A stretch of 64,000 nt of DNA from a virus: the IMG/VR virus record IMGVR_UViG_3300028569_001145, positions 1 through 64,000 of that record; one strand, written 5' to 3'. Shown here piece by piece: positions 645 through 24,669 of this stretch; the stretch's first letter is position 1; each line of letters opens with the position of its first letter. The position numbers and the translations under genes were made by a program. Under the pieces are notes generated by a model. The model saw only the letters and a list, made by a program, of their open reading frames with translations, had not been told where the DNA came from and searched no databases.

Positions 645-1151
645 ATGGTTTTATTTACAGAACAAGAAATTCAAGAACGAGTTAAATCACTAGGCATTCA
701 GGTTTCGTACCAAGCCAACCCGGAAGGTAAGCCCAGAGTCATGATTGGAGTCTTAAATGGAGCATTTATGTTCTTTAGTGACTTAGTTAGGAATATGGAG
801 GTTGATTGTGAAATTGACTTCATTCAGGTTAAATCTTACCAAAACCAACAGCAGTTTGATATTAAACTTTTAAAGGATATCAACGTTGAAATTGCCGGGA
901 AAGATGTCTATGTAGTAGATGATATTTTTGATTCGGGTAACACTATGAGATACTTGATAACCCATCTTCAAACCAGGAAACCTAAGTCAATTACTCCGGT
1001 TACCTTATTCAAAAGTAATTATTCTTATATGGAAAACCTAATTTACGGGTTTGAGTTAGCTGAGGAGTATTGGATTAGAGGGTATGGGTTAGATAATGTA
1101 GATGGTACTAAGAGAAACTTACGACACGTGGAAGGAACTATTTTCGAATAG
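645..1151 (+). CDS. hpt: Hypoxanthine phosphoribosyltransferase-like protein
   Basis: GVLNGAFMFFSDL, PRPP-binding VVDDIFDSGNT, GYGLD, RNL. Confidence 0.9.
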   Translation: MVLFTEQEIQERVKSLGIQVSYQANPEGKPRVMIGVLNGAFMFFSDLVRNMEVDCEIDFIQVKSYQNQQQFDIKLLKDINVEIAGKDVYVVDDIFDSGNTMRYLITHLQTRKPKSITPVTLFKSNYSYMENLIYGFELAEEYWIRGYGLDNVDGTKRNLRHVEGTIFE

Positions 1152-1176
1152 TAAAGTGGGTTATGGGCTAGACAGA

Positions 1177-1185
1177 CTATTTATA
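1177..1185 (+). promoter_or_regulatory. Phage late-type promoter motif (C)TATTTATA, representative copy
   Basis: Found ~5-25 nt before ATGs at 1190, 2542, 9513, 11269, 23196, 29861, 31875, 42874, 44465, 47655, 50398, 53098, 59052 and 63875. Confidence 0.75.
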
Positions 1186-1189
1186 ATAG

Positions 1190-1999
1190 ATGGCATATGT
1201 TTATAGGCATATTAGATTAGATAAAAGAACCCCGTTCTATATCGGAATAGGATCTGACGAAGAGAAAAAATACTACCGTGCAAATACGAAAAGCGGTCGA
1301 AATAAAATTTGGAAAGACATTACAGATAAAACAGCCTATGAGGTGCAGGTAGTATTGGAGGGACTTACTTGGGAGGAAGCTTGCCTAAAAGAGGTTGAAT
1401 TTATAGAACTATACGGTAGGATAGACAAAAAAACAGGTACATTAGCTAATATGACGAAAGGCGGAGATGGTGTATTAGGCAGAGTAGATACAGAAGAAAG
1501 AAAACAAAAATGGAAAGAAAGCAGGAAAGGTTTTCGACATTCGGAAGCAGCCAAGCAGAAAATGAGTATGCAACATACCGGGAAAACACACTCCAGGGAA
1601 ACTAGGGAAAAGATAAGAGTAAACAAAAAACAAGATTGGCAAAACTTAAAACACCCCTTTAATAGCTTAGAATACAGGGAGCAAAAAAGAGAGCATATGA
1701 TTAGAAACAACCCAATGGCAAACCCGGAAATACGAACTAGGCATAAACAGGCTGTTGAAAAAAGAGAGTGGAAAGGAGGGACAGTTTTGAAAGACTTAAA
1801 TACAAAGCAAGTAACCTGTCCACACTGTAAAAAATCAGGAGGTTATATGAGTTTCAAGCAATTTCATTTTGATCGATGTGAAGCTTTTACTGGCATTAAG
1901 CATACAAAACCAGAATATACTTGTCCATATTGTAACAAAACTGGGAAAGGAGCTTCTAATATGCAACGGTGGCATTTTGAAAATTGCAAATACAAATAA
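1190..1999 (+). CDS. Free-standing GIY-YIG-like homing endonuclease with NUMOD3-like repeats and C-terminal Zn fingers
   Basis: YVYRH...FYIGIG, NMTKGGDG, HSEAAKQKMS/HSRETREKI repeats, CPHC/CPYC; own TATTTATA promoter at 1178. Confidence 0.85.
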   Translation: MAYVYRHIRLDKRTPFYIGIGSDEEKKYYRANTKSGRNKIWKDITDKTAYEVQVVLEGLTWEEACLKEVEFIELYGRIDKKTGTLANMTKGGDGVLGRVDTEERKQKWKESRKGFRHSEAAKQKMSMQHTGKTHSRETREKIRVNKKQDWQNLKHPFNSLEYREQKREHMIRNNPMANPEIRTRHKQAVEKREWKGGTVLKDLNTKQVTCPHCKKSGGYMSFKQFHFDRCEAFTGIKHTKPEYTCPYCNKTGKGASNMQRWHFENCKYK

Positions 2000-9749: not shown

Positions 9750-11186
9750 ATGAAACAAGGTTATATACCAAAAGACAAAAGAAAGAAAATCTTATTGCTG
9801 TGTGATGACATTAGAGTTCATTCCGGCATCGCGCACATGGGTAGGGAATTGGTTATGAACACCGCCCACCATTACAACTGGGTTAATCTAGGAGGTGCAG
9901 TTAAACATCCGGAGGCCGGTCAAAGGTTTGACCTGTCTGAGGATACCAACAAACAGGCTCAGATTGAAGATTCGTCAGTGATGTTATACCCGACCGATGG
10001 GTACGGGAATCCAGATATCATCCGTCAGTTAATTCAGATGGAAAAACCAGATGCTTTATTTTTGATTACCGACCCTAGATATTGGGTTTGGTTATTCCAA
10101 ATGGAAAATGAAATTAGAAAGCATTGCCCGATTATATATTTGAATATTTGGGATGATTATCCGGCACCGTTGTACAATGAAACATTCTATGAATCTTGTG
10201 ATGCATTGTTAGGTATTTCAAAACAAACCGTCAATATCAATAAATTGGTGTTGGGTTCAAAGTCCGAAGGTAAACTTATTGAGTATGTACCTCACGGTGT
10301 GAATGAGAAGAACTTTCGTCCTTTGTCTAAGGAAGAAAAATCGTCTAGTGAATTTTTGGAGTTTAAAAATCAAATATTCCAAGGAAAGGAATTTGAGTTT
10401 GTATTATTTTTCAATTCAAGAAATATTCGCCGGAAACAGATTCCGGATGCAATCCTGGCCTTTAGGCATTTTGTTGATAGACTTCCTAAGGAACAGGCTA
10501 AGAAATGTCTCTTCCTTCTTCATACCCAACCGGTGGATGAACATGGAACTGATCTACCGGCTGTAATAGACCTACTATGTCCGGAGGAGTATTGTAATGT
10601 ATTCTTTACCGGTGGTATGTACGACCCCCAAAGAATGAATTGGTTATATAATCTAGCCGATTGCCAGATTCTTTTAACCTCGAACGAAGGGTGGGGTTTA
10701 AGTTTGACCGAAGCCTTGCTTGCTGGTCTGCCTATAATTGCCAATGTTACTGGAGGGATGCAAGACCAAATGCGTTTTGTTAAGGATGGTAAATGGGTTG
10801 ACTTTGATGAGGACTTCCCGTCCAATCATCGCGGTACCATTAAGGAACATGGTGAATGGGCATTCCCAGTATTCCCAACATCTCGTTCATTAGTAGGTTC
10901 AGTACCAACACCTTACATCTTTGATGATAGATGTGAACCAGAGGATGCAGCCGATCAAATTGAGGCAGTTTACAACCTAGGTCCTGAGGAAAGACAGAGA
11001 AGAGGTAATACCGGACGTGAGTGGGCTTTAGGTGATGAGGCTGGATTTACATCTGAAAAAATGGGTAACCGTGTAATTGAATACGTTGATGAATTATTTG
11101 ATACTTGGGAACCAAGAGAAAAATATGAATTCATTCTAGCAGGTGATTATAAGAAAAAAGTTTTAAACCATAAATTAATATATTAA
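9750..11186 (+). CDS. GT4-like (GT-B) glycosyltransferase
   Basis: PHGV, RNIRRK, EGWGLSLTEA...GLPII motif. Confidence 0.9.
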   Translation: MKQGYIPKDKRKKILLLCDDIRVHSGIAHMGRELVMNTAHHYNWVNLGGAVKHPEAGQRFDLSEDTNKQAQIEDSSVMLYPTDGYGNPDIIRQLIQMEKPDALFLITDPRYWVWLFQMENEIRKHCPIIYLNIWDDYPAPLYNETFYESCDALLGISKQTVNINKLVLGSKSEGKLIEYVPHGVNEKNFRPLSKEEKSSSEFLEFKNQIFQGKEFEFVLFFNSRNIRRKQIPDAILAFRHFVDRLPKEQAKKCLFLLHTQPVDEHGTDLPAVIDLLCPEEYCNVFFTGGMYDPQRMNWLYNLADCQILLTSNEGWGLSLTEALLAGLPIIANVTGGMQDQMRFVKDGKWVDFDEDFPSNHRGTIKEHGEWAFPVFPTSRSLVGSVPTPYIFDDRCEPEDAADQIEAVYNLGPEERQRRGNTGREWALGDEAGFTSEKMGNRVIEYVDELFDTWEPREKYEFILAGDYKKKVLNHKLIY

Positions 11187-11230
11187 TGAAACCGTTATTT
11201 GTAATAAGTTGTCCTATTGATACCTACTCT
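11186..11230 (+). pseudogene. Truncated duplicate 5' end (MKPLFVISCPIDTYS) of the glycosyltransferase at 11885
   Basis: Matches KPLFVMSAPVDTYS of the downstream gene; TAATG-coupled to the upstream gene. Confidence 0.85.
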
Positions 11231-11268
11231 ATAAGGATTTTAGTAGGGCAACTATTTATAAATAAAGT

Positions 11269-11892
11269 ATGGGATGTAAAACAGGTAACTACGTATCTTG
11301 TGCTTATTGCACAAAGGAGGTTTATAAATCTAAATGGGAACTACGCAAAGCCACCAGGTACTTCTGCAGCAGAGAATGTGCAAGCAGGGGCCATAGTTTA
11401 TTTTTAACAAAACATGAATACACAAAAATACTATGTCCAGAATGCGGTTCTGAATTTCAGCAACACTGGAAAGGAGCAAAAAAATACTGCTCTACAAAAT
11501 GTGCAGCACGGCACAGCCTTTCTGTTATTAATGCAAAAGAGCCAAAAAAGAGAGGAACTAAACCTGAAAAATTATTTGCAGAGAAGTTGGAGGAGTGGGG
11601 GATTGCTTTTATTTTTCAAAAAAGTTTACCGTGGAAAAAAGGCTGGAAGAAATGGTTTGATTTTTACATCCCGGAATGGAATATGCTCATTGAAGTAGAC
11701 GGTGAATATTGGCATGGCAAAGACATAAAGACTAAAGACTTAAATAAACAACAATGGAATACTCGAAAAAACGACAGGTTAAAAAGCTACCTTGCAAAAA
11801 AACAAAACTACAAACTGCTCCGGGTATGGAGCTTAGAAGTACAAAAACTAACATATGAACAATTAAAAACTTACAATGCAGAATATGAATAA
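11269..11892 (+). CDS. Putative homing endonuclease: Zn-ribbon repeats plus a Vsr/DUF559-like nuclease domain
   Basis: CxxC...FCSxxC repeats; FDFY...IEVDGEYWH...D...LRVW. Confidence 0.8.
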   Translation: MGCKTGNYVSCAYCTKEVYKSKWELRKATRYFCSRECASRGHSLFLTKHEYTKILCPECGSEFQQHWKGAKKYCSTKCAARHSLSVINAKEPKKRGTKPEKLFAEKLEEWGIAFIFQKSLPWKKGWKKWFDFYIPEWNMLIEVDGEYWHGKDIKTKDLNKQQWNTRKNDRLKSYLAKKQNYKLLRVWSLEVQKLTYEQLKTYNAEYE

Positions 11893-13201
11893 CAAACCCT
11901 TGTTTGTGATGAGCGCGCCTGTGGATACCTACTCAGGGTATGGTGCCCGTTCTAGAGATTTAGCCAAAGCAATCATCCAAACAGATAAGTATGATGTGAA
12001 AATCATACCTCAGAGATGGGGTAATACTCCTTGGAATTTTATTCAAGACCATCAGGAAAAATGGGGCTTTTTAAAAGACCATTTCCTACAACAGCAGTTA
12101 CCAAAACAGCCTGAAATTTGGGCTCAAGTAACTATCCCAAATGAATTTCAGCCAGTAGGTAAATTTAATATCGGCTTTACTGCCGGTATTGAATCTACAG
12201 TATGTGCTGCTGATTGGATTGATGGAATGAATAGAATGAATGTAAACTTTGTTTCTTCTGAACATTCTAAAAAGGTATTTCAAGAATCTTCATTTGAACA
12301 ACGTGATCAAAATACCCAACAGTTGATTCGTACTATTAAGCTTGAAAAACCAGTTGAAGTGTTATTTGAAGGAGCAGACCTGGATGTATACAAGGCATTA
12401 GAATCATCAACAGAATCAGTTAAAACCTTTGATAAACTTGCTAGCATTAAGGAAGACTTTGCTTACCTATTTGTTGGCCATTGGTTAAATGGGGATTTAG
12501 GGGAGGATAGAAAGAATGTTGGATTATTAATTAAAGCCTTCTACGAAACGTTTAAAAATAAGATGAAAAAACCTGCCCTAATACTAAAAGTATCTATGGG
12601 CGGTACCTCTTATTTAGATAGAGAAGAAATGTTGAAACGAATTGCCTTGATTAAAAAGACAGTTAATTCAACTAACCTACCTAACATTTATTTGTTACAT
12701 GGTGAATTCTCTGATGAGGAAATGAACTTACTCTATAATCACCCTAAAGTAAAAGCAATGGTTTCTTTAACTAAAGGTGAAGGATTTGGTAGACCATTAT
12801 TGGAATTTACTTTAAGTAAAAAACCAATCCTAACTACAGGATGGTCAGGCCATATGGATTTTCTAGATCCAGAATATACTACTCTGCTTTCAGGTCAATT
12901 AACTAATGTTCATCCAAGTGCTGCTAACGACTGGTTGTTAAAAGAAGCTCAATGGTTCTCTCCTGATCACGGCCAGGTGGGAAACTCACTAAAAGAACTA
13001 TTTGAAGAATATAAAAAATATATTCCCTTAGCACGTAAACAAGCTCATAAGTCTAAGACTGATTTTTCATTCGATAAGATGAAAGAATTACTAGAAGGGA
13101 GACTAGCAGCATTAGTACCTGAATTTCCTAAAGAGGTTAAACTTCAACTACCTACTCTAAAGAAAATCGAATTACCTAAATTAAAAAAAGTAAATGGATA
13201 A
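11885..13201 (+). CDS. GT4-like glycosyltransferase
   Basis: SGYG N-terminal loop, RKNV, GEGFGRPLLE, TGWSGH. Confidence 0.9.
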   Translation: MNNKPLFVMSAPVDTYSGYGARSRDLAKAIIQTDKYDVKIIPQRWGNTPWNFIQDHQEKWGFLKDHFLQQQLPKQPEIWAQVTIPNEFQPVGKFNIGFTAGIESTVCAADWIDGMNRMNVNFVSSEHSKKVFQESSFEQRDQNTQQLIRTIKLEKPVEVLFEGADLDVYKALESSTESVKTFDKLASIKEDFAYLFVGHWLNGDLGEDRKNVGLLIKAFYETFKNKMKKPALILKVSMGGTSYLDREEMLKRIALIKKTVNSTNLPNIYLLHGEFSDEEMNLLYNHPKVKAMVSLTKGEGFGRPLLEFTLSKKPILTTGWSGHMDFLDPEYTTLLSGQLTNVHPSAANDWLLKEAQWFSPDHGQVGNSLKELFEEYKKYIPLARKQAHKSKTDFSFDKMKELLEGRLAALVPEFPKEVKLQLPTLKKIELPKLKKVNG

Positions 13202-22012: not shown

Positions 22013-22465
22013 ATGTTATTAATATCACATAGAGGTAATATAGAGGGCCGGGTACCGGAATTGGAAAACAGTCCAAATTATGTAAGTCAAGCTGTATCCT
22101 TAGGGTATGATGTTGAGGTTGATTTATGGGTAGATAACAACCTCCTCTATCTAGGTCATGATAAACCTCAGTACCCGGTAAACGATCTATGGATAGCTGA
22201 GTTTTTTTATAGTTTATGGATACACTGCAAAAACCCGGAAGCTATAACCTACATGCAAGAAACCCACCCAGAGGTAAATTATTTTTGGCATGAAAAAGAT
22301 ACCTTAACGCTAACATCTAAAAATTACCTTTGGACCTACCCGGGTAAACAACCGGTTAAAAATAGCATAGCAGTAATGCCTGAACTGTATGGTGACGATA
22401 TATCTGAATGCTTAGGGCTATGTAGTGATTATGTTAAAAAATATAAAAATGAAAATAATTTATAG
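22013..22465 (+). CDS. PLC/GDPD-like phosphodiesterase fold protein
   Basis: ISHRGN, EN, VEVD, LGHD, WIHCKN. Confidence 0.75.
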   Translation: MLLISHRGNIEGRVPELENSPNYVSQAVSLGYDVEVDLWVDNNLLYLGHDKPQYPVNDLWIAEFFYSLWIHCKNPEAITYMQETHPEVNYFWHEKDTLTLTSKNYLWTYPGKQPVKNSIAVMPELYGDDISECLGLCSDYVKKYKNENNL

Positions 22466-23144
22466 AATATCGGACACAGGATACAGTAAAGTAAAACCAG
22501 CTTACATAAACAACGAAGCTTGTTTAAAAAATGCTATTAAAATATTTCCCTGGCAAGAACATGACTGGTCTATCATTGCTGATAATATTTCGGAAGAGAC
22601 TAATGATATGATTCAAAAATATATTCCTAGGGGCCATATTAATTATGTTTCTGTTGGACATGGTGCTGGTACTTTTAATCTAGCTTTGGATGAAGCACTA
22701 CAAGAACCAGATTGGCAGGTTGTTTATTTTTTAGAGAATGATTATCTACATAAAACAAACTCAGATAAAATTATTCTAGAAGGTTTGGAATTAGGGGCAT
22801 CGTTCGTATCTTTATACGACCATCCAGATAAGTACATACCCCCAAGTCAAGGAGGTAATCCATACTGTGAAGGAGGGGCGGAAGATACTCGAGTTTATTT
22901 AACAGAATCAACTCATTGGAAAATAACAAACTCAACAACAATGACATTTGCAAGCACAGTTTCAACCCTAGTAAGAACAGAAAAAACTCTCCGGAAGTAC
23001 ACTCAAGGAAGTTACCCGGAAGATTTTAAAATGTTCTTAGATTTAAGGGAACAAGGTGAGCTGTTAATAAGCTCGATCCCAGGATATTCAACTCATGGAG
23101 AGACGGCTTGGTTAACACCCTTAACAGATTGGAGTCAAATATGA
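22449..23144 (+). CDS. GT2-like glycosyltransferase
   Basis: YFLENDYLH, LYDHPD, STTMTF, STH. Confidence 0.7.
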   Translation: MKIIYRISDTGYSKVKPAYINNEACLKNAIKIFPWQEHDWSIIADNISEETNDMIQKYIPRGHINYVSVGHGAGTFNLALDEALQEPDWQVVYFLENDYLHKTNSDKIILEGLELGASFVSLYDHPDKYIPPSQGGNPYCEGGAEDTRVYLTESTHWKITNSTTMTFASTVSTLVRTEKTLRKYTQGSYPEDFKMFLDLREQGELLISSIPGYSTHGETAWLTPLTDWSQI

Positions 23145-23164
23145 TCTCAGTAATAATACCAACC
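23141..23164 (+). pseudogene. Truncated duplicate 5' end (MISVIIPT) of the GT2 at 23893
   Basis: ATGATCTCAGTAATAATACCAACC versus downstream MSISVIIPT; ATGA-coupled to the upstream gene. Confidence 0.8.
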
Positions 23165-23195
23165 CCGGGTCTATTTATAATAAACATAAAAAGGC

Positions 23196-23891
23196 ATGGA
23201 AAAAATAACAGGTATATACAAAATCACAAACCCGCAAGGAAAGATCTACATAGGGCAAAGCATTAACATAAACAGACGCTGGTATGCATATCAAAATTTA
23301 GAAAGAAAAAGCATGGGATTAAAATTGTACAACAGCTTAAATAAATACGGGCCGGAGAATCACATCTTTGAAATTATAAAAGTATGTGAAGTAGCAGAAC
23401 TGCGAGAGCAAGAAACCTACTATAAACAGCTTTATGATAGTGTTTTAACCGGGTTAAATACTAAACCAGTAGATGACCGGTATGGTCCTCATAGTCAAGC
23501 AACAAAGGAGTTAATCTCTAAAAAATGCAAAGATGTAGCAAAAAAAAGAATTTATACAAAGGAGTGGAAGGCTAATATGAAACAGAAAAAAACAGGGCAT
23601 CCTTGTTACAAATCAAAAGAACGGAGTCAAAAGATAGGAGCTGCACATAAAGGCAAAGTAATACCTCAGGAAGTAAAAGATAAAATATACACCGAATCTT
23701 GGCGAATTAAAAACAAGGAAGCACATAAACACCAAATGAAACAAGTAGCACAAATAGATAAAACAGGTAAAGTAGTTGCAGTATGGGAAAGCATCACAGA
23801 GGCAAAAGCTCAGACAGGTATAAAAGGTATAAGTAATGTATTAACCGGCTTAGCAAAAACTGCAGGAAGCTACACATGGAAGGTTATTTAA
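23196..23891 (+). CDS. GIY-YIG homing endonuclease with NUMOD3/NUMOD1-like domains
   Basis: GIYKIT...YIGQS...R; C-terminal WESITEA...KTAGSYTW. Confidence 0.9.
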   Translation: MEKITGIYKITNPQGKIYIGQSININRRWYAYQNLERKSMGLKLYNSLNKYGPENHIFEIIKVCEVAELREQETYYKQLYDSVLTGLNTKPVDDRYGPHSQATKELISKKCKDVAKKRIYTKEWKANMKQKKTGHPCYKSKERSQKIGAAHKGKVIPQEVKDKIYTESWRIKNKEAHKHQMKQVAQIDKTGKVVAVWESITEAKAQTGIKGISNVLTGLAKTAGSYTWKVI

Positions 23892-23892
23892 T

Positions 23893-24669
23893 ATGAGCAT
23901 AAGTGTAATCATACCTACATACAAAGAGCCTGAAGTGCTTGATGTTTGTCTAAAATCAGCCATCACCGGTCAGAAGTTAAATAACCAGATTATAGTAGTG
24001 GTTGATGGGTTCTACGAGGTTAATAGAGAGGTTCTTGAGAAATATAAAGACTCTATACAGATCTTAGTTTTGGAAGAGAATGCCGGGCTTTGTCGGGCAA
24101 CTAACTTAGGAGTCTATAATGCTGAGTTTGATAAGGTTCTAATTGTAAATGATGATAATGTATTCCCAGAGGCATGGGATCAAGTATTACTTGAGCAGTA
24201 TAAACCAGGAAGTGTATTAGCACCTAACCAAATAGAACCCACCCCTTCTATGTTCAGACAATTTCACATTAGAGATTTAGGTAGAGATCCTAAGACGTTT
24301 AACATAAACGATTTTTGGGAATATGATTTTAGTATTGCTGAAGATAAGACAGACGAGACTGGATCAACATTACCAATCTTCATGTCTAAAAAAGACTACT
24401 TGAGGGTAGGAGGTTGGGATGAATCTTACCCCGGTGCTTGGGTAGTAGATTGGGACTTCTTTCTTAAATGTGAATTATCAGGAATGAAGATGCTTAGAAC
24501 TTATGCTTGTCACTTCTATCATTTCGTTTCAGTAGGCACAGAAGCTACTCCGGAAGAAAAACAAAACAAAGCAATTAAAGAACAAGCATGTCATGAATAT
24601 TTTAGATACAAATGGGGGCAGTATGCTCAACATAACACTGCCAATAATTCAAAATTAATCAATTTATAA
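23893..24669 (+). CDS. GT2 glycosyltransferase
   Basis: SVIIPTY, VVVDG, NLG, VNDD, VGGWDE. Confidence 0.9.
   Translation: MSISVIIPTYKEPEVLDVCLKSAITGQKLNNQIIVVVDGFYEVNREVLEKYKDSIQILVLEENAGLCRATNLGVYNAEFDKVLIVNDDNVFPEAWDQVLLEQYKPGSVLAPNQIEPTPSMFRQFHIRDLGRDPKTFNINDFWEYDFSIAEDKTDETGSTLPIFMSKKDYLRVGGWDESYPGAWVVDWDFFLKCELSGMKMLRTYACHFYHFVSVGTEATPEEKQNKAIKEQACHEYFRYKWGQYAQHNTANNSKLINL

Follow-up and report, generated by a model that had tools for sequence, protein, structure and literature searches.

Elements that integrate into transfer RNA (tRNA) genes carry a replacement gene end, and they do so with an integrase and identical att core repeats. In the mitochondrial mORF gene hybrids, known for atp6 of Allomyces macrogynus and for atp6, atp9, cox2 and nad3 of Glomus (PMC3630166, citing Paquin 1994, Seif 2005), an endonuclease open reading frame (ORF) is inserted together with a foreign C-terminal gene end, and the native end is left behind as a remnant that matches the sister species (PMC3630166). 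The free-standing Seg and Mob nucleases of T4-type phages move by “intronless homing”, in which the neighbouring gene of nuclease-free phages is cut and the flanks are co-converted (PMC2988022). I-TevI represses its own expression by way of an operator that resembles its homing site and lies over its late promoter (PMC2988022), and T4 intron homing offers documented cases of one-sided, illegitimate break repair (PMC2988022, citing Parker 1999). Here we analyse a 64,000-nucleotide (nt) stretch of viral DNA, which we call the window (positions 1 to 64,000 of IMG/VR record IMGVR_UViG_3300028569_001145). It is the first 64 kb of a 104.7-kb phage contig that is estimated to be ~58% complete and is a distant relative of Microcystis phage Mel-JY01. 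Within it, the coding sequence of a GT2 glycosyltransferase gene harbours a free-standing GIY-YIG homing endonuclease gene, placed between a short stub that appears to be the orphaned native start of the glycosyltransferase gene and a second, allelic start from which an intact glycosyltransferase is read.

The first-pass annotation of this DNA, made from the letters alone, had described a stub, a promoter-like motif, a GIY-YIG gene and a restarted GT2 gene at 23141-23925, and direct reading of the sequence confirmed all four. The order is upstream gene (U), stub, 6 nt, CTATTTATA, GIY-YIG nuclease gene and restarted GT2, with the following parts (window coordinates are used throughout unless contig positions are named):

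22425 to 23144, + strand: upstream gene U, from the ORF list, without a Pfam family
23141 to 23164, + strand: stub, ATG ATC TCA GTA ATA ATA CCA ACC (MISVIIPT, 8 codons), read directly and compared with the GT2 start of relatives
23165 to 23170, + strand: filler CCGGGT at the left junction, between stub and motif, without a counterpart in nuclease-free relatives
23171 to 23179, + strand: CTATTTATA, a promoter-like motif, presumed late from its position
23165 to 23199, + strand: weak hairpin predicted by folding, in which the motif region pairs with the nuclease gene's AAGG and AUG
23196 to 23891, + strand: free-standing GIY-YIG homing endonuclease gene, 231 amino acids, I-TevI/Seg type (Pfam, PHROG and 1MK0 alignment)
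23893 to 23919, + strand: restart, the second GT2 5' end, ATG AGC ATA AGT GTA ATC ATA CCT ACA (MSISVIIPT), read directly
23893 to 24669, + strand: intact GT2 glycosyltransferase, 258 amino acids, beginning MSISVIIPTYKEPEV (Pfam Glycos_transf_2 PF00535, 1.7e-15)

The identity of the stub was established by comparison with 97 related loci (individual loci are given by L numbers) that were fetched from IMG/VR with U and GT2 as queries. U and GT2 are syntenic in Microcystis phage Mel-JY01 and in ~60 IMG/VR contigs. In ~60 nuclease-free relatives the stop of U overlaps the start of GT2 as ATGA and the protein continues as MISVIIPTYK, so that their GT2 start sits exactly at the position of the window stub. 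In the window the stop of U (TGA, 23142-23144) likewise lies within an ATGA that also holds the ATG of the stub, and the L025 allele is identical to the stub at 23/24 nt. Because the nuclease-free relatives start GT2 at this same ATGA with the same residues, the stub reads as the first 8 codons of the resident GT2, in their native place, orphaned and still translationally coupled to U; the insert starts directly after GT2 codon 8. The stub frame itself runs on as a 41-codon junk ORF that ends at 23266 and overlaps the start of the nuclease gene. The first-pass annotation had called the stub “target-like”. On this evidence it is more than that, namely the resident GT2 start; it marks the left insertion junction, and we infer only that it may also coincide with the site of recognition or cleavage. 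Among 59 nuclease-free relatives the 24-nt sequence of the stub is the fourth most conserved 24-nt stretch of the 1460-nt U/GT2 region, a rank in keeping with the conserved sequences that homing endonucleases are known to favour, though one that does not single out the site. The true start of U is probably the ATG at 22449, because relatives align only from residue 9 on.

The nuclease gene is intact and its product looks active, as judged from sequence features. It matches Pfam GIY-YIG PF01541 (7.9e-8; 32.9 bits against a cut-off of 22.6) and the PHROG family phrog_314, “homing endonuclease” (3.4e-24), and the I-TevI catalytic domain 1MK0 aligns to it (E 0.0023) through the GIY...YIG and RW residues. 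G6-I7-Y8, Y18-I19-G20, R28, E73 and N88 are invariant in 9 nuclease homologues, among which the C-terminal motif ...KTAG..W.. is also conserved. Pfam finds only the catalytic domain in the window nuclease, and homologues at 59-60% identity carry PF07453 and PF07460; IMG/VR contained no homologue above 56% identity. Its presence is sporadic, as expected of a homing endonuclease: it occurs in 0/97 of the related loci, ~60 of which have U directly abutting GT2. It is free-standing, since a search of 22900-24200 against Rfam (E of 1 or better) returned no intron or other RNA family. A group I intron-encoded endonuclease was accordingly rejected as a class, there being no intron RNA at the locus and GT2 being made whole by a duplicated 5' end rather than by splicing. 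The restart ATG lies 1 nt past the TAA stop of the nuclease gene, with GGAAGG within the last nuclease codons; the Pfam domain of GT2 begins at residue 4, and the protein is 60-86% identical to the GT2 of relatives. The duplicated gene end thus flanks the nuclease ORF and leaves a hybrid GT2 that is intact and of full length, as in the mORF hybrids; the restart keeps GT2 intact, its first beta-strand (SVIIPT) being indispensable.

As in the mitochondrial hybrids, a nuclease ORF (GIY-YIG or LAGLIDADG in their case) sits in a coding region beside a diverged replacement gene end and an unused native remnant. The mORF hybrids replace a 3' end and run core, inserted C-terminus, mORF and native remnant, whereas the window locus lies in a phage rather than an organelle and replaces a 5' end, in the order native remnant, promoter, nuclease, inserted N-terminus and core. 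The phage layout therefore resembles a 5'-end mirror image of the mORF hybrids, and the phage cases are mostly of this 5' kind; unlike the mORF hybrids, the phage version needs a promoter, a new start codon and respect for translational coupling with the upstream gene. The seg and mob genes of T4 are similar in being nuclease genes (GIY-YIG here as there) placed between conserved genes, commonly with late promoters just upstream (PMC2988022). They are described as intergenic and without duplicated gene ends, and no word with the stem “duplicat” appears in the review (PMC2988022), whereas the window insert falls within a coding sequence, where a duplicated, allelic gene end keeps it from doing harm. 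The I-TevI operator shares with the stub its place, as target-like DNA directly upstream of or over the nuclease's own late promoter (a putative promoter in the window). The T4 operator is a similar sequence inside the intron, and the stub is a leftover piece of the target gene. The elements in tRNA genes, like the window cassette, restore the interrupted gene with their own copy of its end and leave a partial copy at the other junction; unlike them, the window case would have used a nuclease and recombinational repair, and its repeats have diverged. A literature search of incomplete coverage found no phage description of this layout.

The two GT2 starts differ at 5 of their 7 shared codons (7/21 nt), every difference being synonymous, and the restart has one extra Ser codon, a 3-nt indel. 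The first-pass annotation had called the gene “recoded”, which overstates the matter. The 28 distinct natural alleles of the seven codons differ from one another by 5.0 nt on average, and for 21% of pairs the difference is 7 nt or more. All codons of the stub and of the restart occur in natural nuclease-free alleles, the stub lying 1 nt from the L025 allele and the restart 2 nt from L082, L029 and L010. Purposeful recoding of the GT2 start was therefore rejected, both copies falling within natural allele variation. Stub and restart look like two ordinary alleles that diverged under protein-level selection, rather than a gene end and its drifted duplicate, because a drifting copy would also have gained non-synonymous changes. 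Nor are they identical direct repeats of the transposon type, being identical at 14/21 nt with a 3-nt indel.

How such a second allele may have arrived is best seen at a sister case in the same genome, at 11186-11945, where the same layout surrounds an unrelated nuclease gene at 11269 (phrog_559 HNH, with a weak Pfam Vsr match). A stub of 15 codons (MKPLFVISCPIDTYS), TAATG-coupled to an upstream glycosyltransferase, is followed by CTATTTATA, the nuclease gene and the restart NNKPLFVMSAPVDTYS. The suggestion that nucleases of two unrelated types share one layout in this genome (GIY-YIG at 23196, HNH/Vsr-like at 11269) thus stood up. At 11186, as in the mORF hybrids, it is the native remnant that agrees with relatives, and the inserted end departs from them. 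The stub and its upstream flank are identical at 58/58 nt to the nuclease-free relatives L253 and L254. For the restart, identity to these relatives is 63% in the first 30 nt and 87% in the 30 nt that follow, and the gene body is mostly 93-100% identical. Because point mutation cannot give such a contrast between patch and body, a short foreign patch, coextensive with the duplicated segment, appears to have come in with the 11269 nuclease, and a foreign patch that matches the duplicated segment is what one-sided break repair predicts.

Carried over by analogy to the GT2 locus, this gives the account that we favour and consider probable, in which the nuclease arrived with a replacement GT2 end by break repair that was homologous on one side only, leaving the stub as a scar. 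In a donor phage the nuclease gene would have stood directly upstream of a GT2 allele resistant to its cutting. During a mixed infection the nuclease would have broken a nuclease-free GT2 allele, either at codon 8 or slightly to its right. Homologous repair of the broken end on the gene-body side would have copied the donor GT2 5' end, nuclease gene and promoter, and the opposite end would have been joined without homology. The U gene and the first 8 GT2 codons of the recipient would thereby survive, the latter as a stub separated from the rest of its gene by a cassette of promoter-like motif, nuclease gene and second GT2 start. One-sided repair in T4 and the mitochondrial mORF precedents support this account. 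Several results weigh against it. The nearest GT2 relatives are ~80% identical in DNA, and sliding identity against 11 relatives had no resolution, which left a foreign patch unmappable at GT2. Compared with the closest relative, L003, the restart matches at 44/45 nt from codon 4 on and the stub at 20/24; because the restart is thus closer to L003 than the stub is, either copy may be the resident one. No microhomology is evident at the left junction. As to the context of a donor, nuclease homologues at 55-96% identity are known as protein records only, and a metagenome scan with loose patterns found only relatives at or below ~40% full-length identity.

Arrangements of this kind recur in related nucleases. 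Across 110 non-identical loci with related GIY-YIG genes, the 150 nt upstream of the nuclease gene were translated in three frames and compared with the region around and after its stop, with mismatched locus pairs as the control. This enrichment test, which the first-pass annotation had proposed, was positive: 12/110 loci scored at least 36 against 0.9 expected, and 7/110 scored at least 70, with stubs of 18-37 residues; the high-scoring loci represent at least five independent insertions. The accompanying notion of a “general rule” did not survive, since a stub is still detectable in only about 5-10% of loci, and of the seven nuclease genes in the window four have no flank match. The most informative set comprises eight thymidylate-synthase-associated GIY-YIG loci (the thyA group) among L171-L181, which are freshwater metagenome contigs. 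The DNA that they share starts ~50 nt ahead of the nuclease gene, at a constant remnant that codes for FPLLT, their upstream DNA is unrelated (pairwise identity ~0.45), and the 5' part of their stubs is variable or eroded by deletions, with 2-26 codons left. L175, L176 and L178 carry identical stubs from three metagenome datasets. Because the remnant is constant while the 5' part of the stub varies and erodes, the right end of the stub appears to be a fixed junction and the stubs appear to decay.

Three further observations concern the variety of such loci. L132 (1-1000), one of the high-scoring loci, has a 3'-end arrangement as in the mitochondrial mORF hybrids: its nuclease ORF ends, without a change of frame, in a diverged version of the upstream gene's last 16 residues. 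In L172, L174, L175, L192 and L101 the ATG of the restarted gene lies, in another frame, inside the conserved C-terminal W-K codons of the nuclease, so that the nuclease gene supplies its neighbour with a start codon and a purine-rich stretch. At the hpt locus of the window (1071-1192), which was inspected by sequence only, hpt ends ...WIRGYGLDN...TIFE*. Past that end, in a different frame, comes a second piece that encodes VGYGLD, and it immediately precedes CTATTTATA and the nuclease gene at 1190. The extra copy there stands between the complete gene and the nuclease, an order unlike that of the 5' cases and unlike that of the mitochondrial 3' cases.

Two other origins of the stub have to be weighed against one-sided repair at the GT2 locus. 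In a local duplication, which we think unlikely, a cassette inserted at the U/GT2 junction would have duplicated ~24-31 nt of a single allele, and the downstream copy would then have diverged synonymously, either because self-cleavage or repeat-mediated loss was selected against or because short patches were exchanged with other alleles. Such an event would account for the AATATGA found at or before the start codon in both copies, as a junction-spanning duplication would give, and patch conversion of either copy is mechanistically possible. It sits poorly, however, with a stub that is 1 nt from an extant allele and has neither a non-synonymous change nor an indel, and with the step from TCA to AGT, which needs three substitutions by way of non-serine intermediates. 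The 11 changes within the first 30 nt at 11186, beside a body that is mostly 93-100% identical, are likewise not the work of point mutation. That the likeness is fortuitous, or that the locus is an assembly chimera of nuclease-free and nuclease-carrying strains, is very improbable. Taken by itself, the match between stub and restart is suggestive and not decisive (score 38, against a 99th percentile of 34 for a null of mismatched pairs), ISVIIPT being a common GT2 motif and the genome AT-rich. The decisive evidence is comparative: chance similarity was rejected because the stub lies in exact register at the native ATGA start of ~60 relatives. A chimera is unlikely, as no long shared k-mer at the junction could have misled the assembler and the architecture is found twice more in the contig and in independent assemblies (L175, L176, L178).

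A different question, compatible with an origin by one-sided repair, is whether the stub has been kept for a function, a rather doubtful proposition that takes three forms. As a left homology arm, the stub would let the cassette home into GT2 whatever adjoins it upstream; the shared mobile unit of the thyA group does begin inside the stub, with unrelated genes upstream, but 24 nt is a very short arm and U already gives left homology at the window locus. As an operator, it would offer the nuclease a half-site from which to repress its own promoter, in the manner of I-TevI, which represses its own late promoter through an operator resembling the homing site (PMC2988022), and only 6 nt separate stub and motif. 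As a re-initiation site, the stub, whose ATG retains the ATGA coupling, would damp translation of the nuclease on read-through transcripts by way of its 41-codon ORF, which extends across the nuclease start. The thyA stubs, on the other hand, contain internal deletions and stops, like decaying relics, and the hairpin and fold signal at the window locus is not significant.

The motif CTATTTATA occurs 11 times in the window, always on the + strand, against 2.3 expected; over the whole contig there are 17 copies on the + strand and a single one on the - strand. It stands before portal and major head genes (motif sites include contig positions 63855-84098) and precedes seven nuclease genes of the contig, six of them within the window. 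From these positions “late promoter” is a reasonable label for what we infer to be its function. At six places in the contig, four of them in the window, it ends 4 nt before an ATG, a spacing that would leave almost no leader if CTATTTATA were a -10-type element. On read-through transcripts, a small hairpin could mask the nuclease gene's AAGG and AUG, an arrangement that recalls T4 (PMC2988022). The predicted fold of 23120-23240 is no better than shuffled sequences (z -0.37, not significant), and a scan for sigma-70 promoters and terminators returned background levels only.

Tentatively, and with something short of even confidence, we propose that free-standing homing endonucleases of phages commonly travel in gene-end replacement cassettes that need no splicing, each made up of a native stub, its own promoter, the nuclease and a replacement 5' end, often with a new start codon in the last codons of the nuclease. 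Such cassettes would offer a third route into conserved coding motifs, in addition to introns and inteins. The stub would have a function, as a left homology arm that travels with the cassette and possibly also as an operator, and its constant right end would report the site of insertion or cleavage, making the targets of uncultured nucleases readable from metagenomes. The right ends of the stubs, at GT2 and in the sister cases, fall on strongly conserved motif-coding DNA (SVIIPT, DTYS, VGYGLD and FPLLT).

Whatever its generality, the GT2 locus shows how a homing endonuclease can settle in coding sequence of a compact phage genome with neither an intron nor an intein, by bringing a spare gene end. 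For annotation, short orphan ORFs that are coupled to an upstream stop and precede a nuclease gene are better regarded as relics than as genes. The right end of a stub serves as a positional marker of insertion by uncultured nucleases, and if the link to cleavage is true, metagenomes could serve for large-scale prediction of target sites. The same process would also explain foreign patches and mosaic boundaries in phage genes for glycosylation and nucleotide metabolism.

The U/GT2 junction is a hot spot of gene gain more broadly. Some relatives (L016, L020, L021, L049, L050, L089, L090) have an insert of ~630 nt there with a gene of ~210 codons, and these genes keep the ATGA coupling and leave no stub. 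They were considered as nuclease genes and rejected; the sequence looks FkbM-type methyltransferase-like in some contigs and is an unknown ORF in others. Elsewhere in the window are genes for a family-B-like DNA polymerase, GroEL and many glycosyltransferases. The density of homing-endonuclease-like genes is very high, with seven nuclease-type genes in 64 kb, at 1190, 11269, 23196, 25848, 29861, 31875 and 42874.

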